Source: an uncultured Intrasporangiaceae bacterium (GTDB taxonomy: Bacteria > Actinomycetota > Actinomycetes > Actinomycetales > Dermatophilaceae). From it: a stretch of DNA of 64,000 nucleotides. The DNA is taken from the NCBI GenBank assembly GCA_964647395.1, contig CAZYHR010000002.1, positions 5,601 through 69,600 of the forward strand. The letters are read 5' to 3'. Positions 28,227 to 64,000 of the stretch are shown one piece after another; position 1 is the stretch's first letter; the number at the start of each line of letters is the position of its first letter. Under the pieces are notes generated by a model. It had not been told where the DNA came from. It made no database searches and was given only the letters and a program-made list of their open reading frames with translations. The translations under genes and the position numbers were made by a program.

Positions 28227-29077
28227 CAGTCCTCCTGGCCCTCCACCCGGTCGATGAAGTCGAGGATGTCGCGGGCCGGCTGCTCGGGCTGGTCGAACAG
28301 GAACAGGTGACCCGCCTCGTCGTAGACGTGCAACTCGGAGCCCGGGATGAGCGAGGCGAGCAGCTCGGAGTTGGCCGGCGGGGCCATGCCGTCCTCCTCC
28401 GCGCCGAGCACCAGGGTCGGCAGGGTCAGCGTCCCCGCCCAGGGCAGCGAACTCCAGCCCATGAGCGCGCCGACCTGGCAGCCCACGCCGAGCAGGGTGG
28501 TGCGGTGGGCGTACCAGCCCTTGAGCTCGGTCTCGAACAGCTGCGGATTGCGCCCGACCCGGCCGCGGTAGACGAACGGGGCGGCCATCTCACGGATCAC
28601 CGGGATGACGTAGCGCATCGGGTTGTTGGCCCACATGAGGGTCACCGGGTCGGAGGTGTGGCTGCCGGCCCCGACGTTGGTCGCGCACAGGATGAGCGAC
28701 TCGCAGCGGTCCGGGTAGTCCCGCGCGACCTGCTGGGCGATGGTGCCACCGAAGGAGAAGCCGAGCACGTGGGCCCGCTCCACACCCAGGACGTCGAGCG
28801 ACTCGATGTAGAACTCGGCCAGCTCCGGCATGGACAGGATGTGGTTCGGCGGGCTGGACAGTCCGGTGCCGGGGTGGTCGACGGCGATGATGTCCCGGCC
28901 CTGCAGCCGCTTGGTCAACGGCTCCCAGGCCTCCAAGCAGGCTCCCAGCCCGTTGATCAGCAAGATGGGTACGCCAGGCGCGGGCTGACGACGGATGCGG
29001 ACCTTGAGGTCCTTGATCCGGAGGAAGGTGTCCTCCATCGTCGAGTACTTGACCTTGCGGATCTTCGTCGCGGCCAT
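28226..29077 (-). CDS. phaZ: Alpha/beta hydrolase resembling Pseudomonas-type intracellular PHA depolymerase PhaZ
   Basis: It is 283 aa, with ILLINGLGACLEAW, VLGFSFGGTIAQQVARDYPDRCESLILCAT, PTLVLGAEEDGMAP and DEAGHLFLF. These parallel the P. putida PhaZ sequence as I recall it. Its stop overlaps the phaC start (ATGA). Confidence 0.6.
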   Translation of the reverse strand: MAATKIRKVKYSTMEDTFLRIKDLKVRIRRQPAPGVPILLINGLGACLEAWEPLTKRLQGRDIIAVDHPGTGLSSPPNHILSMPELAEFYIESLDVLGVERAHVLGFSFGGTIAQQVARDYPDRCESLILCATNVGAGSHTSDPVTLMWANNPMRYVIPVIREMAAPFVYRGRVGRNPQLFETELKGWYAHRTTLLGVGCQVGALMGWSSLPWAGTLTLPTLVLGAEEDGMAPPANSELLASLIPGSELHVYDEAGHLFLFDQPEQPARDILDFIDRVEGQED

Positions 29078-55930: not shown

Positions 55931-56854
55931 TCACTCCAGCAGGCCGAGCTCGGTGAACAGCTCGCCGAGCATGCCCTCGACCCGGATCGAGGTGCCCTCG
56001 TCGCCCTGGTGGCTGATCCGCTGCAGCCGGCCCTGGCGCCAGTAGTAGACGTGCGGGCTGATGCCGCCCTGCCCGGTGCTCTCGCCGCGGGCCAGGTTGA
56101 GCAGGCCGCTGATCGCGGCGACGATCTCCGGCCCGGTCGGCACGTGGATCGCCAGCAGCGAGCGGTTCGGCACGGCCACCAGCGCGCCGAGCGGAGGCAG
56201 TTCGATGCCGAAGTCCTGGGACAGGACCCGTTCGAGCACGAGCAGCCGGCTGGCGTTGAAATAGCCGCCGATGCTCAGCAGGACCCGGGAGCCCGGCTCG
56301 TCGCCGAGGGTCATCGTCTCGTCCGAGCGCAGCCCGGCGAGGTTGCGCAGCGCCTGCTGCCGGACCACCTCCCAGCCGCCCCAGACGTCGACCTGGTCGG
56401 CCTTGCCGGCGGTCTTGACCGTCTCGGGGAAGTCGCGCGCCGGCACGGCCAGCAGGTCATCGGCGAGCGGGATCGCCAGGTCGGGCTCGAACGGCAGGTC
56501 GCCGCGCTGCCACAACCCGAGGTAGAGGCTGCCGGCCACCTGCTCGGGCGTCTCGACCGGCTCGTGCTCGTGGGCGAGCAGGATCGCGGCGTGGTGGTCG
56601 AGCAGCCGCGGCCAGTCGCGCTCGGGCGCGGCGGCGGCCTGCGCGGAGATGTTGTGCAGCGGGTAGCGCACCCCACCGATCGCCTCGAGCACGCCCGCGT
56701 CGCAGATCGTTTCGACGCCGCGCCGGCGGAAGGCGGCCATCGCCTCGACCCGGAAGCGCTGACCCTGCTCGGCGTCCAGGGCCGGCAGGTCAGGATCGGG
56801 TATGCCGCCCGGTGTCGGCTCGCTGCCGCCGCCCCTGCGCCCGAACCACCCCAT
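55931..56854 (-). CDS. Hypothetical protein (307 aa)
   Basis: It shows a clean codon-bias ORF with an ATG start, but I recognise no motif. Confidence 0.5.
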   Translation of the reverse strand: MGWFGRRGGGSEPTPGGIPDPDLPALDAEQGQRFRVEAMAAFRRRGVETICDAGVLEAIGGVRYPLHNISAQAAAAPERDWPRLLDHHAAILLAHEHEPVETPEQVAGSLYLGLWQRGDLPFEPDLAIPLADDLLAVPARDFPETVKTAGKADQVDVWGGWEVVRQQALRNLAGLRSDETMTLGDEPGSRVLLSIGGYFNASRLLVLERVLSQDFGIELPPLGALVAVPNRSLLAIHVPTGPEIVAAISGLLNLARGESTGQGGISPHVYYWRQGRLQRISHQGDEGTSIRVEGMLGELFTELGLLE

Positions 56855-56981
56855 GAACCTCGCCTCCCAGTCGGTTCCCCCGATGGTAAGCGGGGTGGCG
56901 GCCGCCGGACGGCCCCGTTCGCGGTCCGGCTGGCCGGTGGCGGATAATGGTCCTGTCCCGTCTCCCCTGGAAGCCGTCGTC

Positions 56982-57398
56982 GTGATCCGCTACCTGCCCG
57001 TCGTCCTCGAGCTCGGCATCGTCATCTACTGCCTGGTCGACATCTCCCAGGCGGATCGGACCCGGGTGCGCAATCTCCCCAAGGGCTGGTGGATCGTCCT
57101 GGTCATCGTCGTGCCGCTGCTCGGCGGTCTCGCGTGGCTGCTGGGCGGTCGGCCGCAACGACCGCCGCAGGGCGGGACCCCGCTGCCCCGCCGGCCCGGT
57201 CCGGTGGCCCCCGAGGACGACCCGGAGTTCATCGCCCGTCTGCGCCAGTCCAACAGCGAGCACGAGCACCTGCTGCGCCAGTGGGAGGACGAGTTGCGCT
57301 CCCGCGAGCAGCGGCTGCAGCGCCCGCCGCGCGACGCGCCGCCACCGGACGGCGGCAGCGACGACCCACCGGCCGGCAGCCCGCCCACCGGCGGCTGA
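56982..57398 (+). CDS. PLDc_N-type small membrane protein with charged C-terminal tail
   Basis: It reads IRYLPVVLELGIVIYCLVDISQADRTRVRNLPKGWWIVLVIVVPLLGGLAWLLGGRP. The alternative in-frame ATG at 56883 would leave only 28 bp to the divergent gene. Confidence 0.6.
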   Translation: MIRYLPVVLELGIVIYCLVDISQADRTRVRNLPKGWWIVLVIVVPLLGGLAWLLGGRPQRPPQGGTPLPRRPGPVAPEDDPEFIARLRQSNSEHEHLLRQWEDELRSREQRLQRPPRDAPPPDGGSDDPPAGSPPTGG

Positions 57399-57407
57399 GC
57401 CGCCAGG

Positions 57408-58241
57408 TCACCAGCGCGACGTGGCAGCGGCCAGCACCTCGCCGAACAGCACCCCCGCGTCGATGTCGTAGCCGCGCCGGGTGAACCACTCGGCCATGGT
57501 CCGCGCGTCCCGCTCGAGGAACTCGAATCCGTGCGGATTGCCGATGACGTCGACGATCTGCGGCCAGTCGATGAGGACCAGCCGGTCGCCGTCGAGCAGG
57601 ACGTTGTAGGGCGACAGGTCACCGTGCGCCCAGCCGAGGCCGGCCAGGTGCAGCATCGCGTCCCGCACCTGCTCGAACAGCCCGGGCAGTGCGCGCCGCT
57701 CCGGCCGGCACTGGGCCAGCCGGGGCGCGGCCACCCCGTCGGCGCCGACGAACTCCATGAGCAGTTCGCGGTCGTCGAGCTGCACGGGATAGGGCACCGG
57801 CAGTCCCTGGGCCCACAGTGTCGCGAGGGCGCCGAACTCGGCGCCGGCCCACTGGCCGGCGATGACCTCCTTGCCGAAGGCGGTGCGGCGGGCCATGGCG
57901 CGGTTCTCCCGGGAGCGGCGCACCCGGCGCCCCTCCAGATAGCCGGCGTCCCGGTGGAACAGCCGGTGCTGCGAGGTGCGGAAGCGCTTGGCCGCCATGA
58001 TGCTGTCGCGGTCCGGCCGGCCAGGGACCCACCGGTGCACCAGGTGGACGTCGGCCTCCTTGCCGGTCTTGAGGATGCCGAGGTCGGCGTCGACGGCGCC
58101 GAACTCGGTGACGACCCAGCCGGGTCGCGGTGCCGGCCCGTGGGTGGCGCCGTCCCAGCTGGACCAGCGCTCGCCCTCGGGGGCGGCGTCAGGCAGTGAG
58201 TCGAGGGCGAATCGGTTGTCCTCGAAGGGGGTTGCGGGCAT
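57408..58241 (-). CDS. RIO-type atypical serine protein kinase
   Basis: It has the ATP-binding LKTGKEADVHLV, catalytic loop HGDLSPYNVLL and metal-binding LIDWPQ. ATG 58241 was chosen; the ORF-track 5' extension lacks coding character. Confidence 0.75.
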   Translation of the reverse strand: MPATPFEDNRFALDSLPDAAPEGERWSSWDGATHGPAPRPGWVVTEFGAVDADLGILKTGKEADVHLVHRWVPGRPDRDSIMAAKRFRTSQHRLFHRDAGYLEGRRVRRSRENRAMARRTAFGKEVIAGQWAGAEFGALATLWAQGLPVPYPVQLDDRELLMEFVGADGVAAPRLAQCRPERRALPGLFEQVRDAMLHLAGLGWAHGDLSPYNVLLDGDRLVLIDWPQIVDVIGNPHGFEFLERDARTMAEWFTRRGYDIDAGVLFGEVLAAATSRW

Positions 58242-58325
58242 GAGTGGTCTCCGGAGCGTGAGGGGTGGGGGTGCGGGAGGCACCCCGGGCAGTGGTGGAC
58301 ATCTCGCGCTCCTTCGCTCGCCGGA

Positions 58326-58378
58326 CCGGTATGCCGCGGCTGCGGCCACCTCGTCGGTCCACCGTGGCGGCATACCGG
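58326..58378. repeat. Inverted repeat CCGGTATGCCGC-N29-GCGGCATACCGG in the RIO-kinase / CHAT-gene intergenic region
   Basis: Read directly from the sequence. The spacer contains a second GCCAC...GTGGC pairing. Confidence 0.75.
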
Positions 58379-58524
58379 GTCCACCGCAACCGGTTTTCCC
58401 TTCTCGGCCCCGCCCGGCCAGGCGGCAGGAAGTATCACCAAAGGGGTGCGCCGCTCCTCCCACTCGCGAGACAGTGGACCCGTCGCCGTCCCACCGTCAG
58501 CGTGGACTCTCCCAAGGAGGCGCC

Positions 58525-61500
58525 GTGCCCGAGAAGCGACTTGCCCGTGGCAGCCTGCGAGTCAACTACCCCGACTCGCACACCATGTCCCGCGACCGGC
58601 CGGGGTCGCAGGAGCGCGGGCTGGAGGGCGACCTCGTCCACGGTGCCCTGCTGGAAGCGTTGCGGGACACCGGGTTCCAGGACGTCGAGGAGATCTCGCT
58701 CAAACCCAAGCGGACTCGCGGCCTCGACCCGTCAGGCGGCGCCGGCAAACCGCTCACGCTCGACCTGGACGTCGCCGCCGGGGAGGACGCGGTCGTGCTG
58801 GTGGAGCAGGACGGCTGCTACTCGTGGCATCTGCCCAAGAGCGCGACGACCAGGACCCGCCGGCTGCCGGGGGAGGCGCACACGGCGTCGTTCGAGATCC
58901 CGTTGCGGGCCGCCGCCCCGACCCGCCCGCGGGGGCGCGGCGGCGGCCGGGCCGGCGCGATCCGGACCCGCGGCCTGGTCGGCGACCTGGTCGGTGGGGC
59001 GGTGCGGGCGCTGGTGCTCAAGTTCGCCGCGCCCGTGCTCGTCGGCAAGGCGATCGACTTCCTCGAGCGGCACGTCGAGCCCGGACTGGTGCACATCGCG
59101 GGCGTCGACCCCGCCACCTGGACGCGGGTCGACCGGCTCGAGCAACTCCCGCTGCCGACCGGCCGACCGCTGCGGATCCTGCTGTTCGTCCACGGCACGT
59201 TCTCCTCGACCGTCGGGGCGTTCGGGACCCTCGGTGTCGTCGGCGCCGGGCCCGACTTCCTGCGCGCGGCGGTGGACCGCTACGACGCGGTCGTCGGCTT
59301 CGACCACCCGACCCTGTCGGTCGACCCGCTGGCCAACGCGACCGACCTGCTGCAGCGGGTCCGCGGGGTCACCGGTGGGGTGACCTTCGACGTCGTGTGC
59401 CACAGCCGGGGCGGGCTGACCACCCGATCCTTCGCGGAATACGTGCTGCCCCCGTCCGGCTGGGACGGGCGGGTCGGCACCGCCGTCTTCGTCGCGGCGA
59501 CGAACAACGGCACCCACCTGGCCGACCCGCAACGCTGGAACGACCTCATCGACCTGACGACCAACCTCGCGGCGGTCGGCGCGGGCGCGCTGGTCGCGGT
59601 GCCCGGAGCCGGGCCGGTGCTGGCCGGGGTGGCCGGCGCCCTCAAGGGCCTCGGGGCGCTGGTCAAGTACCTCGCGGCCTACCTGTTCACCGAGGGCGGC
59701 GTGCCCGGCCTCGCGGCGATGACCCCGGGCGGCGCGTTCGTCACGGGGATCAACCAGACCCAGCCGGGACAGCCCGGGCCCGGCGCCGCGTGGCACGTCG
59801 TGCAGTCCAACTTCCACGTCACCCTGCTGGACGACAGCCACCGGCCGCCGCAGTTCCCCAAGGAACTCGCGGTGCGCCTGGCCGAGGGTCTGGTCGATCA
59901 GGTCTTCAAGGGCGACAACGACCTGGTTGTCGACTGCGCGTCCATGGGCTCGATCGACGCGGCGGCCGGCGGCGGATTCGTCGCCAGCACCTACGACTTC
60001 GGCACCAACGACGTCGTCTATCACGGCAACTACTTCGACCAGGCCGACTTCGTCGGCGCGCTGGGCGACATGCTGTTCGGCGGCGAGGCGACGGCGGCAC
60101 CGACGATCGACCGCGGGGACTTCGATCTGCCCACCCCGGTCACCCCGGCCGGCTCGCCCCCGGAGTCGACGCCGGACGAGGTCGACCCGGGCCGGCGCAG
60201 GCCCGCCAAGGGTGGCGGCGCGGGCGGGGTCCGGTCGCGCGGCATCACCTGGGCCGGGGCGGCCGACCAGCCGGTGACCACCACTGCGGGCGACTTCGCC
60301 GACCCGGGTGAGCCGGCGACCGCCGGGGCCGACCCCGATGAGCCGGTGACCGGCACCGCCGACGAGCCGGTCACTGCTGCCGCCGACGAGCCGGCGCAGG
60401 CCCATCTACTCGCCGAGATGCCCGATCGTCCGGTCGTGGGCCGGCCGGCCTCGCTGCGAGTGGCCTTGTCCCGCAAGGAGATCGCCTCGGTGGTGAGCGC
60501 CCCCGCGACGGGCCGGGCGACGATCATGGGGATGCCCGGCCGGGTCCTCGACGTCCGGGTGCTGCCGAAGAAGAACTGCTCGATCCAGGGCGACGACGAG
60601 GGCTCCTTCACGCTGCCCACCGGCAGCGGCACCTCCGAGCTGCGCTTCGACGTGGTGCCCCGGGACGCCGGGCCGCTCGTCGTCACGGTCCTCGTCGAGG
60701 CCGGTGGCTATCCGCTGGCCCGGCTCACCGTGCAGGCGACAGCCACCGCGAAGGCACCGAAGGCCGGCGGGCGGACCTCGGCGCGGGCGACCGCGGTGGC
60801 CGACCCGGCCGCGGACGCCCCGGGCCTGGCGTCGGCGCTGTGGCTGCAGATCGAGCCGGTCGAACGCGACCAGGGCACCACCTTCGTCTACACGGTCAAG
60901 TCCGAGAAGCTGGGCCTGCTCGAGCGATTCGAGTCCGCGCCGCTCAAGGACATCGAGGGCTTCGTCGTCGAGCTGTTCCGCGACCTGAGCCGGTCCTTCG
61001 ACGACCACGGCACCGGCAAGGCCTTCGTCACGGCGCTGCAGGACCGTGGGGCGCAGCTGTTCGACGAGCTGTTCCCGGAACCGCTGCGGGCGCTGCTGTG
61101 GCAGCACCGGGCCGAACTGGGCCAGATCTGGCTGCTCGCCGACGAGCCCTACCTGCCGTGGGAACTCGTGCACCTCAAGCCCGCGAAGGGGCGCCGGCCA
61201 CGCACGCCGTGGTTCCTCGGCCAGCTCGGGCTGGTGCGCTCGCAGTACGGCGCCTTCCCGCCCCGGGTGCTGTTGGCCCGGCCGGGCCGGGTGCGGTCGC
61301 TGTGCCCGGACTACCTGGATTCCCGGTGGCGGCTGGAGGAGTCCGCGGCCGAGGCGGCATACCTCAAGGATCGGTTCGGCGCCGAGCCGGTCGCCGCGAC
61401 CGAGCGTGACGTGCTGGCCCTGCTGCGCAAGGGCGACTTCGACCTGCTGCACTTCTCCGGTCACGGCCTGTGCGATCCCGGCGACGTCGCCTCGGCCAAG

Positions 61501-61905
61501 ATCATGCTCGCCGGCCGCAAGGGCCGCGGCGGCGCGGTCACCCCGCAGTATCTGTCGGCCACCACGGTGAGCCAGAACGTCGACTACACCAAGAGCGAGA
61601 ACCGGCCGGTCGTCGTGCTCAACGCCTGCCAGACCGCCCGGGGCGGCCAGCAGCTGTCCAGCCTGGGCGGCTTCGCCCGCGCCTTCCTCGAGGCCGGTGC
61701 CGGGGCCTACGTGTCGACCCTGTGGTCGGTGCGCCAGGAGCCGGCCCGCGACTTCGTCGAGACCTTCTACGACCGGCTGCTCGGCGGAGCCACGGTCGGC
61801 GAGGCGTCGGTGGCCGCGCGTGAGGCGGCGCGGGCTGCCGGGGATGCCTCGTGGCTGGCCTACGCCGTCTACGCCAGGCCCGACGCGATCCTGCAGACGA
61901 CCTGA
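58525..61905 (+). CDS. Multidomain protein: unknown N-terminal domain + lipase-like alpha/beta-hydrolase + acidic linker/beta-sandwich + C-terminal CHAT (caspase-fold) protease
   Basis: GTG 58525 is preceded by AAGGAGG. Hydrolase motifs are ILLFVHGTFSS, VVCHSRGG (Ser codon 59404), GDNDLVVD (59920) and VVYHGNYF (60022). CHAT motifs are DLLHFSGHG (His codon 61462) and VVVLNACQTARG (Cys codon 61627). The ORF-track 5' part (57976-58524) is antisense to the kinase. Confidence 0.8.
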   Translation: MPEKRLARGSLRVNYPDSHTMSRDRPGSQERGLEGDLVHGALLEALRDTGFQDVEEISLKPKRTRGLDPSGGAGKPLTLDLDVAAGEDAVVLVEQDGCYSWHLPKSATTRTRRLPGEAHTASFEIPLRAAAPTRPRGRGGGRAGAIRTRGLVGDLVGGAVRALVLKFAAPVLVGKAIDFLERHVEPGLVHIAGVDPATWTRVDRLEQLPLPTGRPLRILLFVHGTFSSTVGAFGTLGVVGAGPDFLRAAVDRYDAVVGFDHPTLSVDPLANATDLLQRVRGVTGGVTFDVVCHSRGGLTTRSFAEYVLPPSGWDGRVGTAVFVAATNNGTHLADPQRWNDLIDLTTNLAAVGAGALVAVPGAGPVLAGVAGALKGLGALVKYLAAYLFTEGGVPGLAAMTPGGAFVTGINQTQPGQPGPGAAWHVVQSNFHVTLLDDSHRPPQFPKELAVRLAEGLVDQVFKGDNDLVVDCASMGSIDAAAGGGFVASTYDFGTNDVVYHGNYFDQADFVGALGDMLFGGEATAAPTIDRGDFDLPTPVTPAGSPPESTPDEVDPGRRRPAKGGGAGGVRSRGITWAGAADQPVTTTAGDFADPGEPATAGADPDEPVTGTADEPVTAAADEPAQAHLLAEMPDRPVVGRPASLRVALSRKEIASVVSAPATGRATIMGMPGRVLDVRVLPKKNCSIQGDDEGSFTLPTGSGTSELRFDVVPRDAGPLVVTVLVEAGGYPLARLTVQATATAKAPKAGGRTSARATAVADPAADAPGLASALWLQIEPVERDQGTTFVYTVKSEKLGLLERFESAPLKDIEGFVVELFRDLSRSFDDHGTGKAFVTALQDRGAQLFDELFPEPLRALLWQHRAELGQIWLLADEPYLPWELVHLKPAKGRRPRTPWFLGQLGLVRSQYGAFPPRVLLARPGRVRSLCPDYLDSRWRLEESAAEAAYLKDRFGAEPVAATERDVLALLRKGDFDLLHFSGHGLCDPGDVASAKIMLAGRKGRGGAVTPQYLSATTVSQNVDYTKSENRPVVVLNACQTARGGQQLSSLGGFARAFLEAGAGAYVSTLWSVRQEPARDFVETFYDRLLGGATVGEASVAAREAARAAGDASWLAYAVYARPDAILQTT

Positions 61906-62862: not shown

Positions 62863-64000
62863 TCAGCCGGCCAGGTGACCCCACGCGGGGGCCAGCGCCG
62901 ACCAGGGACCGACGGCGGCCACCCGGCCCTCTTCGAGGACGACCACCCGGTCGGCCCGAGCCAGTGCGGCGCGCTTGGACGTGGCGCCCACGACGGTGGC
63001 CGACCGCTCGCGCAAGGCGTGCCACAGCTCGATCTCGGTGCGGGCGTCGAGGGCGCTGGACACGTCGTCGGCGAGCAGCAGCTCGGCGTCGGCGGCCAGG
63101 GCCCGGGCCAGCGCCAGCCGCTGCACCTGGCCGCCGGACAATCGCACGCCGCGGTGCCCGACCAGCGCCGTGGCGCCACCGGCCGACTCGACGTCGAGCT
63201 GCAGCCGGGCATCGGAGACCGGCCCGGCGAAGTCGCGGCCGAAACCGAGCTGGACGTTCTCGGCGAAGGTGCCGGAGAGCACCCGCGGCACCTGAGCGAC
63301 ATAGGCCACCTGCCCGGGGCGCAGGAACACCTCGGCGTCGTCGACCTCGGTGTCGTTCCAGCGCAGCGATCCGGTGTAGTCGGTGAGGCCGGCCAGGGTG
63401 CGCAGCAGTGTCGACTTGCCCGAGCCCACCTGCCCGAGCAGCAACACGAGCTCGCCGCGCTCGATCGTCAGGTCGACGTCCTCCAGGCCGATCGTGCCGT
63501 CCTCGTGCACCGCGGTGAGGGTGGTGAGGCAGAGCCGTTGCAGCGGCACCCGATCGACCTCGGGCGGCGGTGGCGCGGCCCCGGTGAGCAGGTCGACGCC
63601 CGGGGGCAGGTGCATGAGGTCGACTCCACCGGCCATCCGGCTGGTCGCCGTCTGCCAGGACCGGGTGCCCGGCGCCTCGGTGACCACCGCGCTCGCCACC
63701 CGCCCGAACCATTCGAAGCCGTTGACCGCGTTGACGACGAGCAGGGCGGTGGCCAGGCCCCACAGGTCGGCGAGCACGGCGGCCCAGGCCGCGACGGCGC
63801 CGACCCGGACCATGACACCGGGGACCCCCTCGAGCACGGCCTGCACCCGGTGCTCGCGGACCGCCGCTTCGACCCGGCCATGGTCGACCCGGCGCAGATG
63901 CCGGGCGGCCTCGGGCGTGCCGGCGGCCAGCTTGACCGTCTGGGCCGACTCGAGCGTGGACACCAGGGCCCGGCCGAAACGCGCCCGCGCCGCCGCTGCC
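62863..64000 (-). CDS. ABC transporter, fused permease/ATP-binding protein (exporter type), 5' end outside window
   Basis: The C-terminal NBD has Walker A GQVGSGKST, signature LSGGQVQRLALARAL and Walker B LLLADDVSSALD. The upstream part looks like TM helices and runs off the window. Confidence 0.8.
   Translation of the reverse strand, partial: AAAARARFGRALVSTLESAQTVKLAAGTPEAARHLRRVDHGRVEAAVREHRVQAVLEGVPGVMVRVGAVAAWAAVLADLWGLATALLVVNAVNGFEWFGRVASAVVTEAPGTRSWQTATSRMAGGVDLMHLPPGVDLLTGAAPPPPEVDRVPLQRLCLTTLTAVHEDGTIGLEDVDLTIERGELVLLLGQVGSGKSTLLRTLAGLTDYTGSLRWNDTEVDDAEVFLRPGQVAYVAQVPRVLSGTFAENVQLGFGRDFAGPVSDARLQLDVESAGGATALVGHRGVRLSGGQVQRLALARALAADAELLLADDVSSALDARTEIELWHALRERSATVVGATSKRAALARADRVVVLEEGRVAAVGPWSALAPAWGHLAG

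Follow-up and report, generated by a model that had tools for sequence, protein, structure and literature searches.

A lipase-like hydrolase fused to a CHAT protease in an uncultured Intrasporangiaceae bacterium: a possible protease-activated effector

What does a lipase-like enzyme do in the same polypeptide as a caspase-like protease? The question is raised by a gene for a protein of 1126 residues on contig CAZYHR010000002.1 of an uncultured Intrasporangiaceae bacterium (assembly GCA_964647395.1), within a stretch of 64,000 nucleotides that was analysed as a whole and is referred to here as the window. An original prediction, made from the sequence alone, had placed a lipase-like α/β-hydrolase behind an unfamiliar N-terminal domain and regarded it as the candidate effector half of the fusion. 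Pfam profiles, sequence motifs, an AlphaFold model and Foldseek searches bear out both the hydrolase and the separate domain in front of it. We propose, with a probability of roughly 0.4, that the protein is a latent cytoplasmic lipase or esterase that would be released or activated by Arg-directed protease cleavage.

Since the G+C content of the window is about 72%, spurious open frames are abundant. A codon-position filter picked out a single frame on the forward strand that ends at position 61905, with a G+C content of 0.92 at third codon positions (GC3). The frame is open from 57976 onwards (57976–61905), and the true start is the GTG codon at 58525: it is preceded at a distance of 5 nucleotides by AAGGAGG, the N-termini of homologues (MPxxxLxxGxLRVxYP...) align from this codon, and the first strands that follow it are modelled by AlphaFold with a predicted local distance difference test score (pLDDT) of 94–95. 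The part of the frame upstream of the GTG codon (57976–58524) overlaps a RIO kinase gene that is encoded on the other strand; this segment is an artefact of the high G+C content and non-coding for the hydrolase gene. The interval 58525–60120 that had been assigned to the hydrolase and its N-terminal domain corresponds to residues 1–532 and ends just past the hydrolase domain. The methionine of 'MSRDRPG', which had been quoted with it, is the internal residue 21.

Four Pfam models match the protein above their gathering thresholds and in their typical order: DUF7362 (PF24062; residues 9–167, E 6e-34, 118 bits against a threshold of 27.6), DUF7379 (PF24096; residues 219–410, E 6e-63, 212.6 bits against 33, with the full profile 1–191 covered), DUF7363 (PF24063; residues 630–735, E 2e-23) and CHAT (PF12770; residues 935–1102, E 1.5e-24, 87.4 bits against 24). 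Inspection of the sequence reveals no evident signal peptide, as the N-terminus MPEKRLARGSLRVNYPDSH lacks a hydrophobic signal segment and forms a conserved β strand of DUF7362. The protein is thus presumably cytoplasmic.

Residues ~210–522 are supported as an α/β-hydrolase with a lipase-like fold and the predicted triad S294/D466/H500. The oxyanion-hole motif LRILLFVHGTFSS (residues 215–227), the nucleophile elbow VVCHSRGGLT (290–299), the acid motif GDNDLVVD (463–470) and the histidine motif DVVYHGNYF (496–504), all quoted in the original prediction, are present in canonical order. Structure prediction and a structure search had been suggested there as checks, and an α/β-hydrolase core is indeed found in the AlphaFold2 (AF2) model of residues 1–592 (pLDDT 83.5; predicted template modelling score, pTM, 0.83), in which the nucleophile elbow is formed by a strand, the Sm-x-Nu-x-Sm sequence and a helix. 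A Foldseek search of the PDB with the model returned 97 matches at E ≤ 0.001, led by family I bacterial lipases with a probability of 1.0. The top 37 matches are lipases or the lipase-family esterase EstA (including 1tah, T1 lipase and 1ex9), with E values from 2e-7 to 1e-5. Template modelling (TM) scores normalised to the target lie between 0.45 and 0.54 and sequence identities between 12% and 18%. Residues 335–385 form a strongly hydrophobic helical hairpin whose best 19-residue Kyte–Doolittle window reaches 1.8 (family median 1.67), as would be expected of a lipase lid or a membrane-engaging element.

The label 'PGAP1/DUF676-type', which the hydrolase had first been given, did not survive. 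When the hydrolase region was scanned alone at E ≤ 10, it matched DUF7379 and, at E 0.29, Palm_thioest, and nothing else; PGAP1-like (PF07819) and DUF676 (PF05057) gave no profile match to the whole protein at E ≤ 1 either, and the structural neighbours are family I lipases. No significant sequence homology to lipases of the PDB was found (best E 1.1 for 6nkc with the single sequence and 0.23 for 7x2p with a profile), and at the sequence level the hydrolase lies outside all classical lipase families.

The model therefore suggests lipids as the substrate class, but the α/β-hydrolase fold does not determine the substrate, and Foldseek ranks 38–50 include polyketide thioesterase domains and other esterases. 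The domain might accordingly be a serine peptidase of this fold, or a thioesterase, with proteins or small molecules as its targets, and form a two-enzyme proteolytic device together with CHAT. We consider this very improbable, because all of the 37 best structural matches are lipases or EstA, interfacial enzymes typically have a long, hydrophobic lid made of helices, and the region has no peptidase S9/S33 or thioesterase match in Pfam apart from the weak one to Palm_thioest.

The catalytic motifs are well conserved among homologues, as the original prediction required. In 49 aligned homologues (35–62% identical), H223, G224, S294, R295 and G296 are invariant (49/49), and D466 and H500 are each retained in 47. 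A set of 77 sequences from genome contigs retains S294 in 74 cases, D466 in 76 and H500 in 76, so that triad and oxyanion residues are 96–100% conserved. Such strong purifying selection on the triad favours the hydrolase as a catalytic effector. The three sequences in which S294 is replaced by glycine come from a Marmoricola sp. and two uncultured Actinomycetota metagenome-assembled genomes (MAGs) (L040, L042 and L043); all three keep D466 and H500, and they would represent naturally occurring, catalytically dead variants of the hydrolase. The CHAT His/Cys dyad is retained in L040 and L043, and the CHAT part of L042 lies in a separate frame.

The first ~190 residues, originally described as matching nothing recognisable, do constitute a separate domain, and the domain has no fold relative in the PDB or BFVD; it is, however, catalogued in Pfam as DUF7362, where no function is assigned. 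Modelled alone, residues 1–205 reach a pLDDT of 82 and are mostly β, with one long helix; in our reading they pack against the hydrolase. Foldseek found no structural relative of this part below E 0.001, the best E values being 0.035 for the PDB and 0.0065 for BFVD, with query-normalised TM scores below 0.3, and a C2/PLAT-like or Ig-like fold is thus unsupported by Foldseek. A profile search of 1.84 billion representative sequences identified 716 proteins that carry DUF7362 (a word-index search with the N-terminal domain alone came back empty, probably owing to a limit of the index). Of the 150 that were listed among the 716, only P0142 does not have the domain at the N-terminus or close to it. 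The original prediction had asked which other partners the domain is fused to: in the listed proteins the partner that follows DUF7362 is this hydrolase, which local domain hidden Markov models detected in every listed protein that is long enough. DUF7362 is therefore a private appendage of the hydrolase and not a module shared among effectors.

The loops of DUF7362 are variable in length, rich in Pro, Ala and Gly, and modelled with low pLDDT. Four of them carry a conserved basic position, corresponding to R31, R65, R112 and R149 (Table 1), and in most cases a small residue comes next. The last lies at the end of an Arg/Gly-rich stretch (residues ~128–158) that is disordered and length-variable, with pLDDT below 50 at residues 145–151. 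This stretch had been noted before as a possible cleavage or regulatory segment; it is present and ends in the conserved pair R149-G150, and a role in cleavage is still a matter of hypothesis. The sites read R-T-R-[GSD]-L in close relatives and R-R-G in distant phyla. A basic-(x)-Arg-small motif occurs 337 times in 77 N-terminal domains, compared with 135 ± 10 times in shuffled sequences, and is depleted in the hydrolase region (36 versus 78 shuffled); as the 77 sequences are related to one another, the enrichment score should not be read as a probability. The stronger evidence is that the arginines keep their positions across phyla. Bacterial caspase-like proteases with mapped specificity cleave after Arg, with small residues nearby (type IV Thoeris preprint, 10.1101/2024.10.24.620036).

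The protease half of the polypeptide is predicted to be catalytically intact. CHAT proteases belong to clan CD, and no CHAT-bearing relative departs from the two dyad residues, H980 (in HFSGHG; 61462–61464) and C1035 (in LNACQT; 61627–61629). The further matches in NCBIfam and PADLOC are weak and confined to the CHAT region; with PADLOC v2 and the whole protein these are BovA (8e-4) and SAVED_CHAT (4e-3). A single-sequence search of the PDB with the CHAT half found nothing, and a profile search found the CHAT domain of DdvA (8rot, E 0.009) alone. Between the hydrolase and DUF7363 lies a disordered, low-complexity linker with near-tandem DEPVT(G/A) repeats (GADPDEPVTGTADEPVTAAADEP) and a VRSRGI motif that begins at residue 570 and resembles the Arg sites of the N-terminal domain. 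Only 43 of 67 relatives have an R-[GSA]-hydrophobic motif in their linker, and we therefore dropped a linker cleavage motif as a conserved feature. In many distant relatives the position of the linker is occupied by a folded TCAD7 domain.

The window protein is, by its sequence, a typical member of a widespread family that has been noticed computationally and is catalogued in Pfam as domains of unknown function. Its closest database relative is only 62–64% identical, and a literature search by domain name found no mention of DUF7362, DUF7379 or DUF7363. A genome scan revealed at least 522 loci with a patchy distribution over many phyla (Actinomycetota, Chloroflexota, Verrucomicrobiota, Acidobacteriota, Gemmatimonadota, Bacteroidota, Planctomycetota and Proteobacteria), of which 79 were fetched and form the basis of all locus counts given here. 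CHAT sequence lies downstream of the hydrolase in 72 of the 79 and in the same reading frame in 67. The fusion on which the original prediction had built is thus the norm of the family, and many of the 'stand-alone' database proteins of ~550 residues are, in view of these counts, probably fragmentary or the products of split genes.

The identity of the peptidase varies considerably. Split forms consist of a DUF7362–hydrolase–TCAD7 protein and a DUF7363–CHAT protein; other members are fused directly to Peptidase_C14 (P0004, L023) or to an M4 thermolysin-type peptidase with an FTP propeptide motif, in the latter case with a separate CHAT gene adjacent. Two CHAT-less Gemmatimonadota loci (L064 and L078) have an astacin-like metallopeptidase gene immediately upstream. 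The DUF7362–hydrolase pair thus appears to be a constant module that is nearly always coupled to some peptidase, and the Arg loops are retained in the members fused to M4 peptidase. In the Rhodocyclaceae MAG locus L056 (1340–9650), genes for NACHT-FGS, EAD8-CHAT and EAD8-nSTAND1-FGS proteins lie on one strand; a stand-alone DUF7362–hydrolase gene, whose product lacks EAD8 and carries a disordered tail of basic character, is divergent from this cluster.

Some of these loci deserve a separate remark. The ORF (open reading frame) that precedes the CHAT-less hydrolase gene in L064 (6920–7852), L068 (6771–7715) and L078 (6725–7600) is conserved and ~300 residues long. Pfam scans, which covered the L064 and L078 copies, gave weak astacin/matrixin-type similarity (E 2e-7 and 2e-6), and blastp grouped the L068 copy with them. 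Close by are two further conserved upstream ORFs, one with sub-threshold similarity to metallo-β-lactamases (scanned in L064 and L068) and one that has no Pfam match. In Humibacillus xanthopallidus DSM 21776 (L025, 8496–12302), one frame of 1483 residues encodes hydrolase, CHAT and C14 caspase, whereas in strain KV-663 (L023, 8490–10502) the hydrolase frame of 883 residues runs into a C14 caspase and has no CHAT. The two strains of one species thus differ in fusion state, which could also reflect differences in sequencing or assembly.

Our proposal for how the protein works is as follows. The hydrolase would be a latent esterase or lipase effector. A trigger would switch on the CHAT domain, the caspase encoded downstream, or both, and the protease would cut after the conserved arginines that the four disordered DUF7362 loops expose, and perhaps within the linker as well. 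Cleavage would remove or loosen an inhibitory N-terminal domain, or else free the enzyme from the polypeptide, whereupon the hydrophobic lid could engage the membrane from the inside. Hydrolysis of its lipids would then kill or arrest the cell in an abortive-infection-like or programmed-death response. The lipid substrate, the cleavage at the Arg loops, the direction of control and the biological role are what we infer from the combined data. A more specific version goes further: DUF7362 would be an inhibitory prodomain that can be cleaved at multiple Arg-Gly sites, and the family would be caspase/CHAT-activated pro-lipases under gasdermin-like control that destroy membrane lipids enzymatically, with trigger-sensing region, protease and executioner in one chain and a metacaspase-type amplifier beside it. 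In this full form we regard the proposal as doubtful.

Several observations weigh against a protease-activated lipase. The putative substrate class is deduced from fold similarity, at the TM scores and identities given above. The Arg loops might be conserved as binding elements, for anionic lipids or for some other partner. Three of the 77 relatives have lost the nucleophile, residues 1–592 have no PADLOC match, and the gene is vertically conserved among close actinobacterial relatives. It is surrounded by core chromosomal genes (Mrp/ApbC, MgtE-like, HpcH aldolase, PhaC, WS/DGAT, ECF sigma) and not by a defence island. Finally, a constant hydrolase module with a varying protease can equally mean that the protease is the effector.

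If the protease is indeed the effector, the DUF7362–hydrolase module would be its regulator or sensor: it would bind or turn over a lipid or acyl ligand, or report membrane damage, and thereby switch on an Arg-specific, promiscuous CHAT protease or caspase that degrades cellular proteins. The exchange of CHAT, C14, M4 and astacin-like peptidases around an invariant hydrolase module is consistent with this, as is the invariance of the CHAT dyad in a family that tolerates S294G in 3 of 77 hydrolases, and known bacterial caspase-like effectors do work by promiscuous Arg-specific proteolysis. However, the 96–100% conservation of the triad argues for catalysis over mere binding. Furthermore, four unrelated peptidase folds are unlikely to share one allosteric interface, whereas their interchange is easily explained if they need only cut exposed loops, which all of them could do. 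In L056, the sensor is supplied by a STAND NTPase that carries EAD8 and the protease by an EAD8-CHAT protein, and the hydrolase gene is still there; since the role of sensor and switch is already filled, the hydrolase is likely a downstream target. This context favours the hydrolase as effector, short of proof, and we consider the protease unlikely, though not implausible, in that role.

The neighbourhood of the gene bears on a further explanation, in which hydrolase and protease are a housekeeping or developmental pair outside any conflict system: the hydrolase would remodel envelope or storage lipids or de-acylate proteins, and the protease would only mature or anchor it. The core chromosomal setting fits this. 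A RIO1-type kinase gene, divergent from the hydrolase–CHAT gene, is present in 37 of the 79 loci at 67–77% identity (tblastn), and these identities fit vertical descent. All 37 are close actinobacterial relatives, those with names being of Dermatophilaceae/Intrasporangiaceae type. The missing PADLOC match of the N-terminal half, the lack of any megablast match to plasmid sequences, and the nucleophile elbow with its weak resemblance to Palm_thioest (E 0.29) point in the same direction. Against it stands the coupling to caspase-superfamily proteases and, in relatives, to TCAD7 and EAD8/STAND/FGS, which is a conflict-system signature according to Kaur et al. (eLife 2020; PMC7159879). The patchy spread over numerous phyla, in which nothing beyond the module itself is conserved as a neighbour, also speaks against a housekeeping role, which we consider improbable. 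Since no conserved neighbour was found outside the close actinobacterial relatives, we take the link to the RIO kinase as shared gene order only, which it probably is.

On the downstream side, a metacaspase-type Peptidase_C14 gene begins 42 nucleotides past the stop codon of the hydrolase–CHAT gene with an AGGAG of its own and probably belongs to the same operon. A C14 gene follows in the window and in 48 other loci (49/79 by tblastn), namely close actinobacterial relatives and one Miltoncostaeaceae locus, where the caspase-like match lies upstream. No MoxR, vWA, VMAP, iSTAND, STAND or GTPase switch was found in the window between 50.6 and 64 kb or in 10 further ORFs that were checked; among relatives, a core NTPase switch near the module occurs in L056 alone. 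No SAVED, TIR or CRISPR genes are nearby, there is no lipase foldase gene among the neighbours, and a promoter and terminator scan of the 283-bp divergent intergenic region found nothing.

Table 1. Positions of the gene, its domains and predicted functional sites, and the two flanking genes in the window
Feature	Residues	Position	Strand	Remarks
RIO1-type kinase gene		57408..58241	-	Divergent from hydrolase–CHAT gene
Ribosome-binding site AAGGAGG		58514..58520	+	5 nucleotides upstream of GTG
Whole gene	1126 residues	58525..61905	+	DUF7362 – DUF7379 hydrolase – linker – DUF7363 – CHAT
β-rich N-terminal domain	1–205	58525..59139	+	Pfam DUF7362 at 9–167
Loop 1 Arg	R31	58615..58617	+	Basic in 97% of 77 sequences; candidate P1 site of a protease
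Loop 2 Arg (KRTRGL)	R65	58717..58719	+	88% basic
Loop 3 Arg (TRTRRL)	R112	58858..58860	+	86% basic
Arg-Gly at end of disordered Arg/Gly-rich loop (IRTRGL)	R149-G150	58969..58974	+	92% basic, 88% Gly
Lipase-like α/β-hydrolase domain	210–522	59152..60090	+	Pfam DUF7379 at 219–410
Oxyanion hole	H223-G224	59191..59196	+	Directly after strand 216–222
Nucleophile in H-S-R-G-G	S294	59404..59406	+	Between strand 286–293 and helix 296–311
Two-helix hydrophobic lid hairpin	335–385	59527..59679	+	Helices 335–357 and 363–385
Catalytic acid in N-D-L-V-V (predicted)	D466	59920..59922	+	
Catalytic His in V-Y-H-G-N-Y-F (predicted)	H500	60022..60024	+	After strand 488–495
Disordered low-complexity linker	523–629	60091..60411	+	pLDDT 32–49
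DUF7363 domain	630–735	60412..60729	+	
CHAT caspase-like protease part	Pfam 935–1102	61327..61902	+	Runs to last codon
Peptidase_C14 caspase gene	276 residues	61948..62778	+	SHG / DTCHSG metacaspase-type dyad

A few other features of the surroundings should be recorded. The RIO1-type kinase has a sub-threshold match to TCAD9, a ternary-complex-associated domain (25.6 bits against 40). An ABC-type ATPase gene (62863–63963, reverse strand) is convergent with the caspase gene; it matches PADLOC 'mad3' at E 1.2e-22 over residues 271–346 only, and is found beside the module in 2 of the 79 loci, i.e. it is not conserved. A small protein with a PLDc_N domain (56802–57398, forward strand) is conserved in four of the closest loci, and the adjacent 307-residue ORF, which has no Pfam match (55931–56854, reverse strand), is conserved only in L072. 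Further away, at 25018–28589 on the reverse strand, genes for a WS/DGAT wax-ester/triacylglycerol synthase and a PhaC polyhydroxyalkanoate synthase adjoin each other; such storage-lipid and polymer genes fit a Dermatophilaceae-like, polyphosphate-accumulating type of organism.

The observation behind the original prediction is therefore confirmed, and its interpretation is partly supported. Fold, triad, the logic of the fusion and the idea of a cleavable Arg/Gly segment hold as hypotheses, and the family label was wrong. In bacterial immunity and cell death, caspase-like proteases are increasingly recognised as central switches, with gasdermin pores and indiscriminate proteolysis as their known outputs so far. 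The hydrolase lends itself to testable predictions, as it combines a lipase-like enzyme with an intact triad, a hydrophobic lid and a private N-terminal domain with four Arg loops, whatever the class of its partner peptidase. If it were a protease-activated lipase, it would represent a new class of executioner in bacterial programmed death and offer a model system that is compact, consists of a single gene and has hosts that can be cultured, Terrabacter and Intrasporangium among them. Otherwise the window gene simply adds another member to a Pfam family that is still uncharacterised.

The closest precedent for the pairing of the two enzymes is found in NTPase conflict systems. Kaur, Burroughs, Iyer and Aravind (eLife 2020; PMC7159879) reported that caspase-superfamily peptidases in these systems are always accompanied by a neighbouring α/β-hydrolase gene, described related hydrolases in other NTPase systems, and proposed effector release by proteolysis as probable; they give the hydrolase no function. 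The same pairing is seen in the window, with the fused CHAT domain and the C14 gene downstream, and in the VMAP/MoxR-vWA, iSTAND and GTPase systems of that study, the hydrolases being compared by their description. TCAD7 in relatives and the context of L056 also tie the family to this theme. Whereas those systems are built around a core NTPase switch, the window protein has no such gene within ~8 kb upstream or 2 kb downstream, and its hydrolase and protease are part of one self-contained polypeptide.

Family I lipases (Burkholderia glumae, 1TAH; Pseudomonas aeruginosa, 1EX9; Geobacillus T1, 2Z5G) are the best structural match (E 2e-7) and share with the window hydrolase the order of HG, nucleophile elbow, acid and His as well as a helical lid. 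Their acid motif is N-D-G-x-V, which the N-D-L-V-V of the window protein resembles. Unlike these lipases, the window hydrolase has no evident secretion signal, and it carries an extra N-terminal domain and a fused protease.

In MARTX toxins, a clan-CD cysteine protease domain autoprocesses the polypeptide and thereby frees effectors that include an α/β-hydrolase phospholipase. The window protein may follow a similar logic, in that a caspase-fold protease and a lipase-type hydrolase are combined in one chain with candidate cleavable linkers. However, the MARTX protease belongs to family C80 and not to CHAT, MARTX is a secreted toxin whereas the window protein is presumably cytoplasmic, and MARTX is cleaved after Leu while the candidate sites here are Arg-Gly. 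As far as tested, the two hydrolase domains are not homologous.

The proposed direction of control can be compared with bacterial gasdermins, which are cut by neighbouring caspase-like or CHAT proteases, with the SAVED-CHAT to PCaspase cascade and with the type IV Thoeris caspase. In all of them a caspase-superfamily protease controls a lethal output, as we propose for the window protein. Type III-B CRISPR provides a known example of a CHAT-to-caspase cascade, and the succession of CHAT and C14 caspase in the window mirrors the two proteases of the SAVED-CHAT to PCaspase cascade. The output in systems of the gasdermin and Thoeris type is a pore-former or a promiscuous protease, whereas the putative executioner of the window protein would be a lipase.

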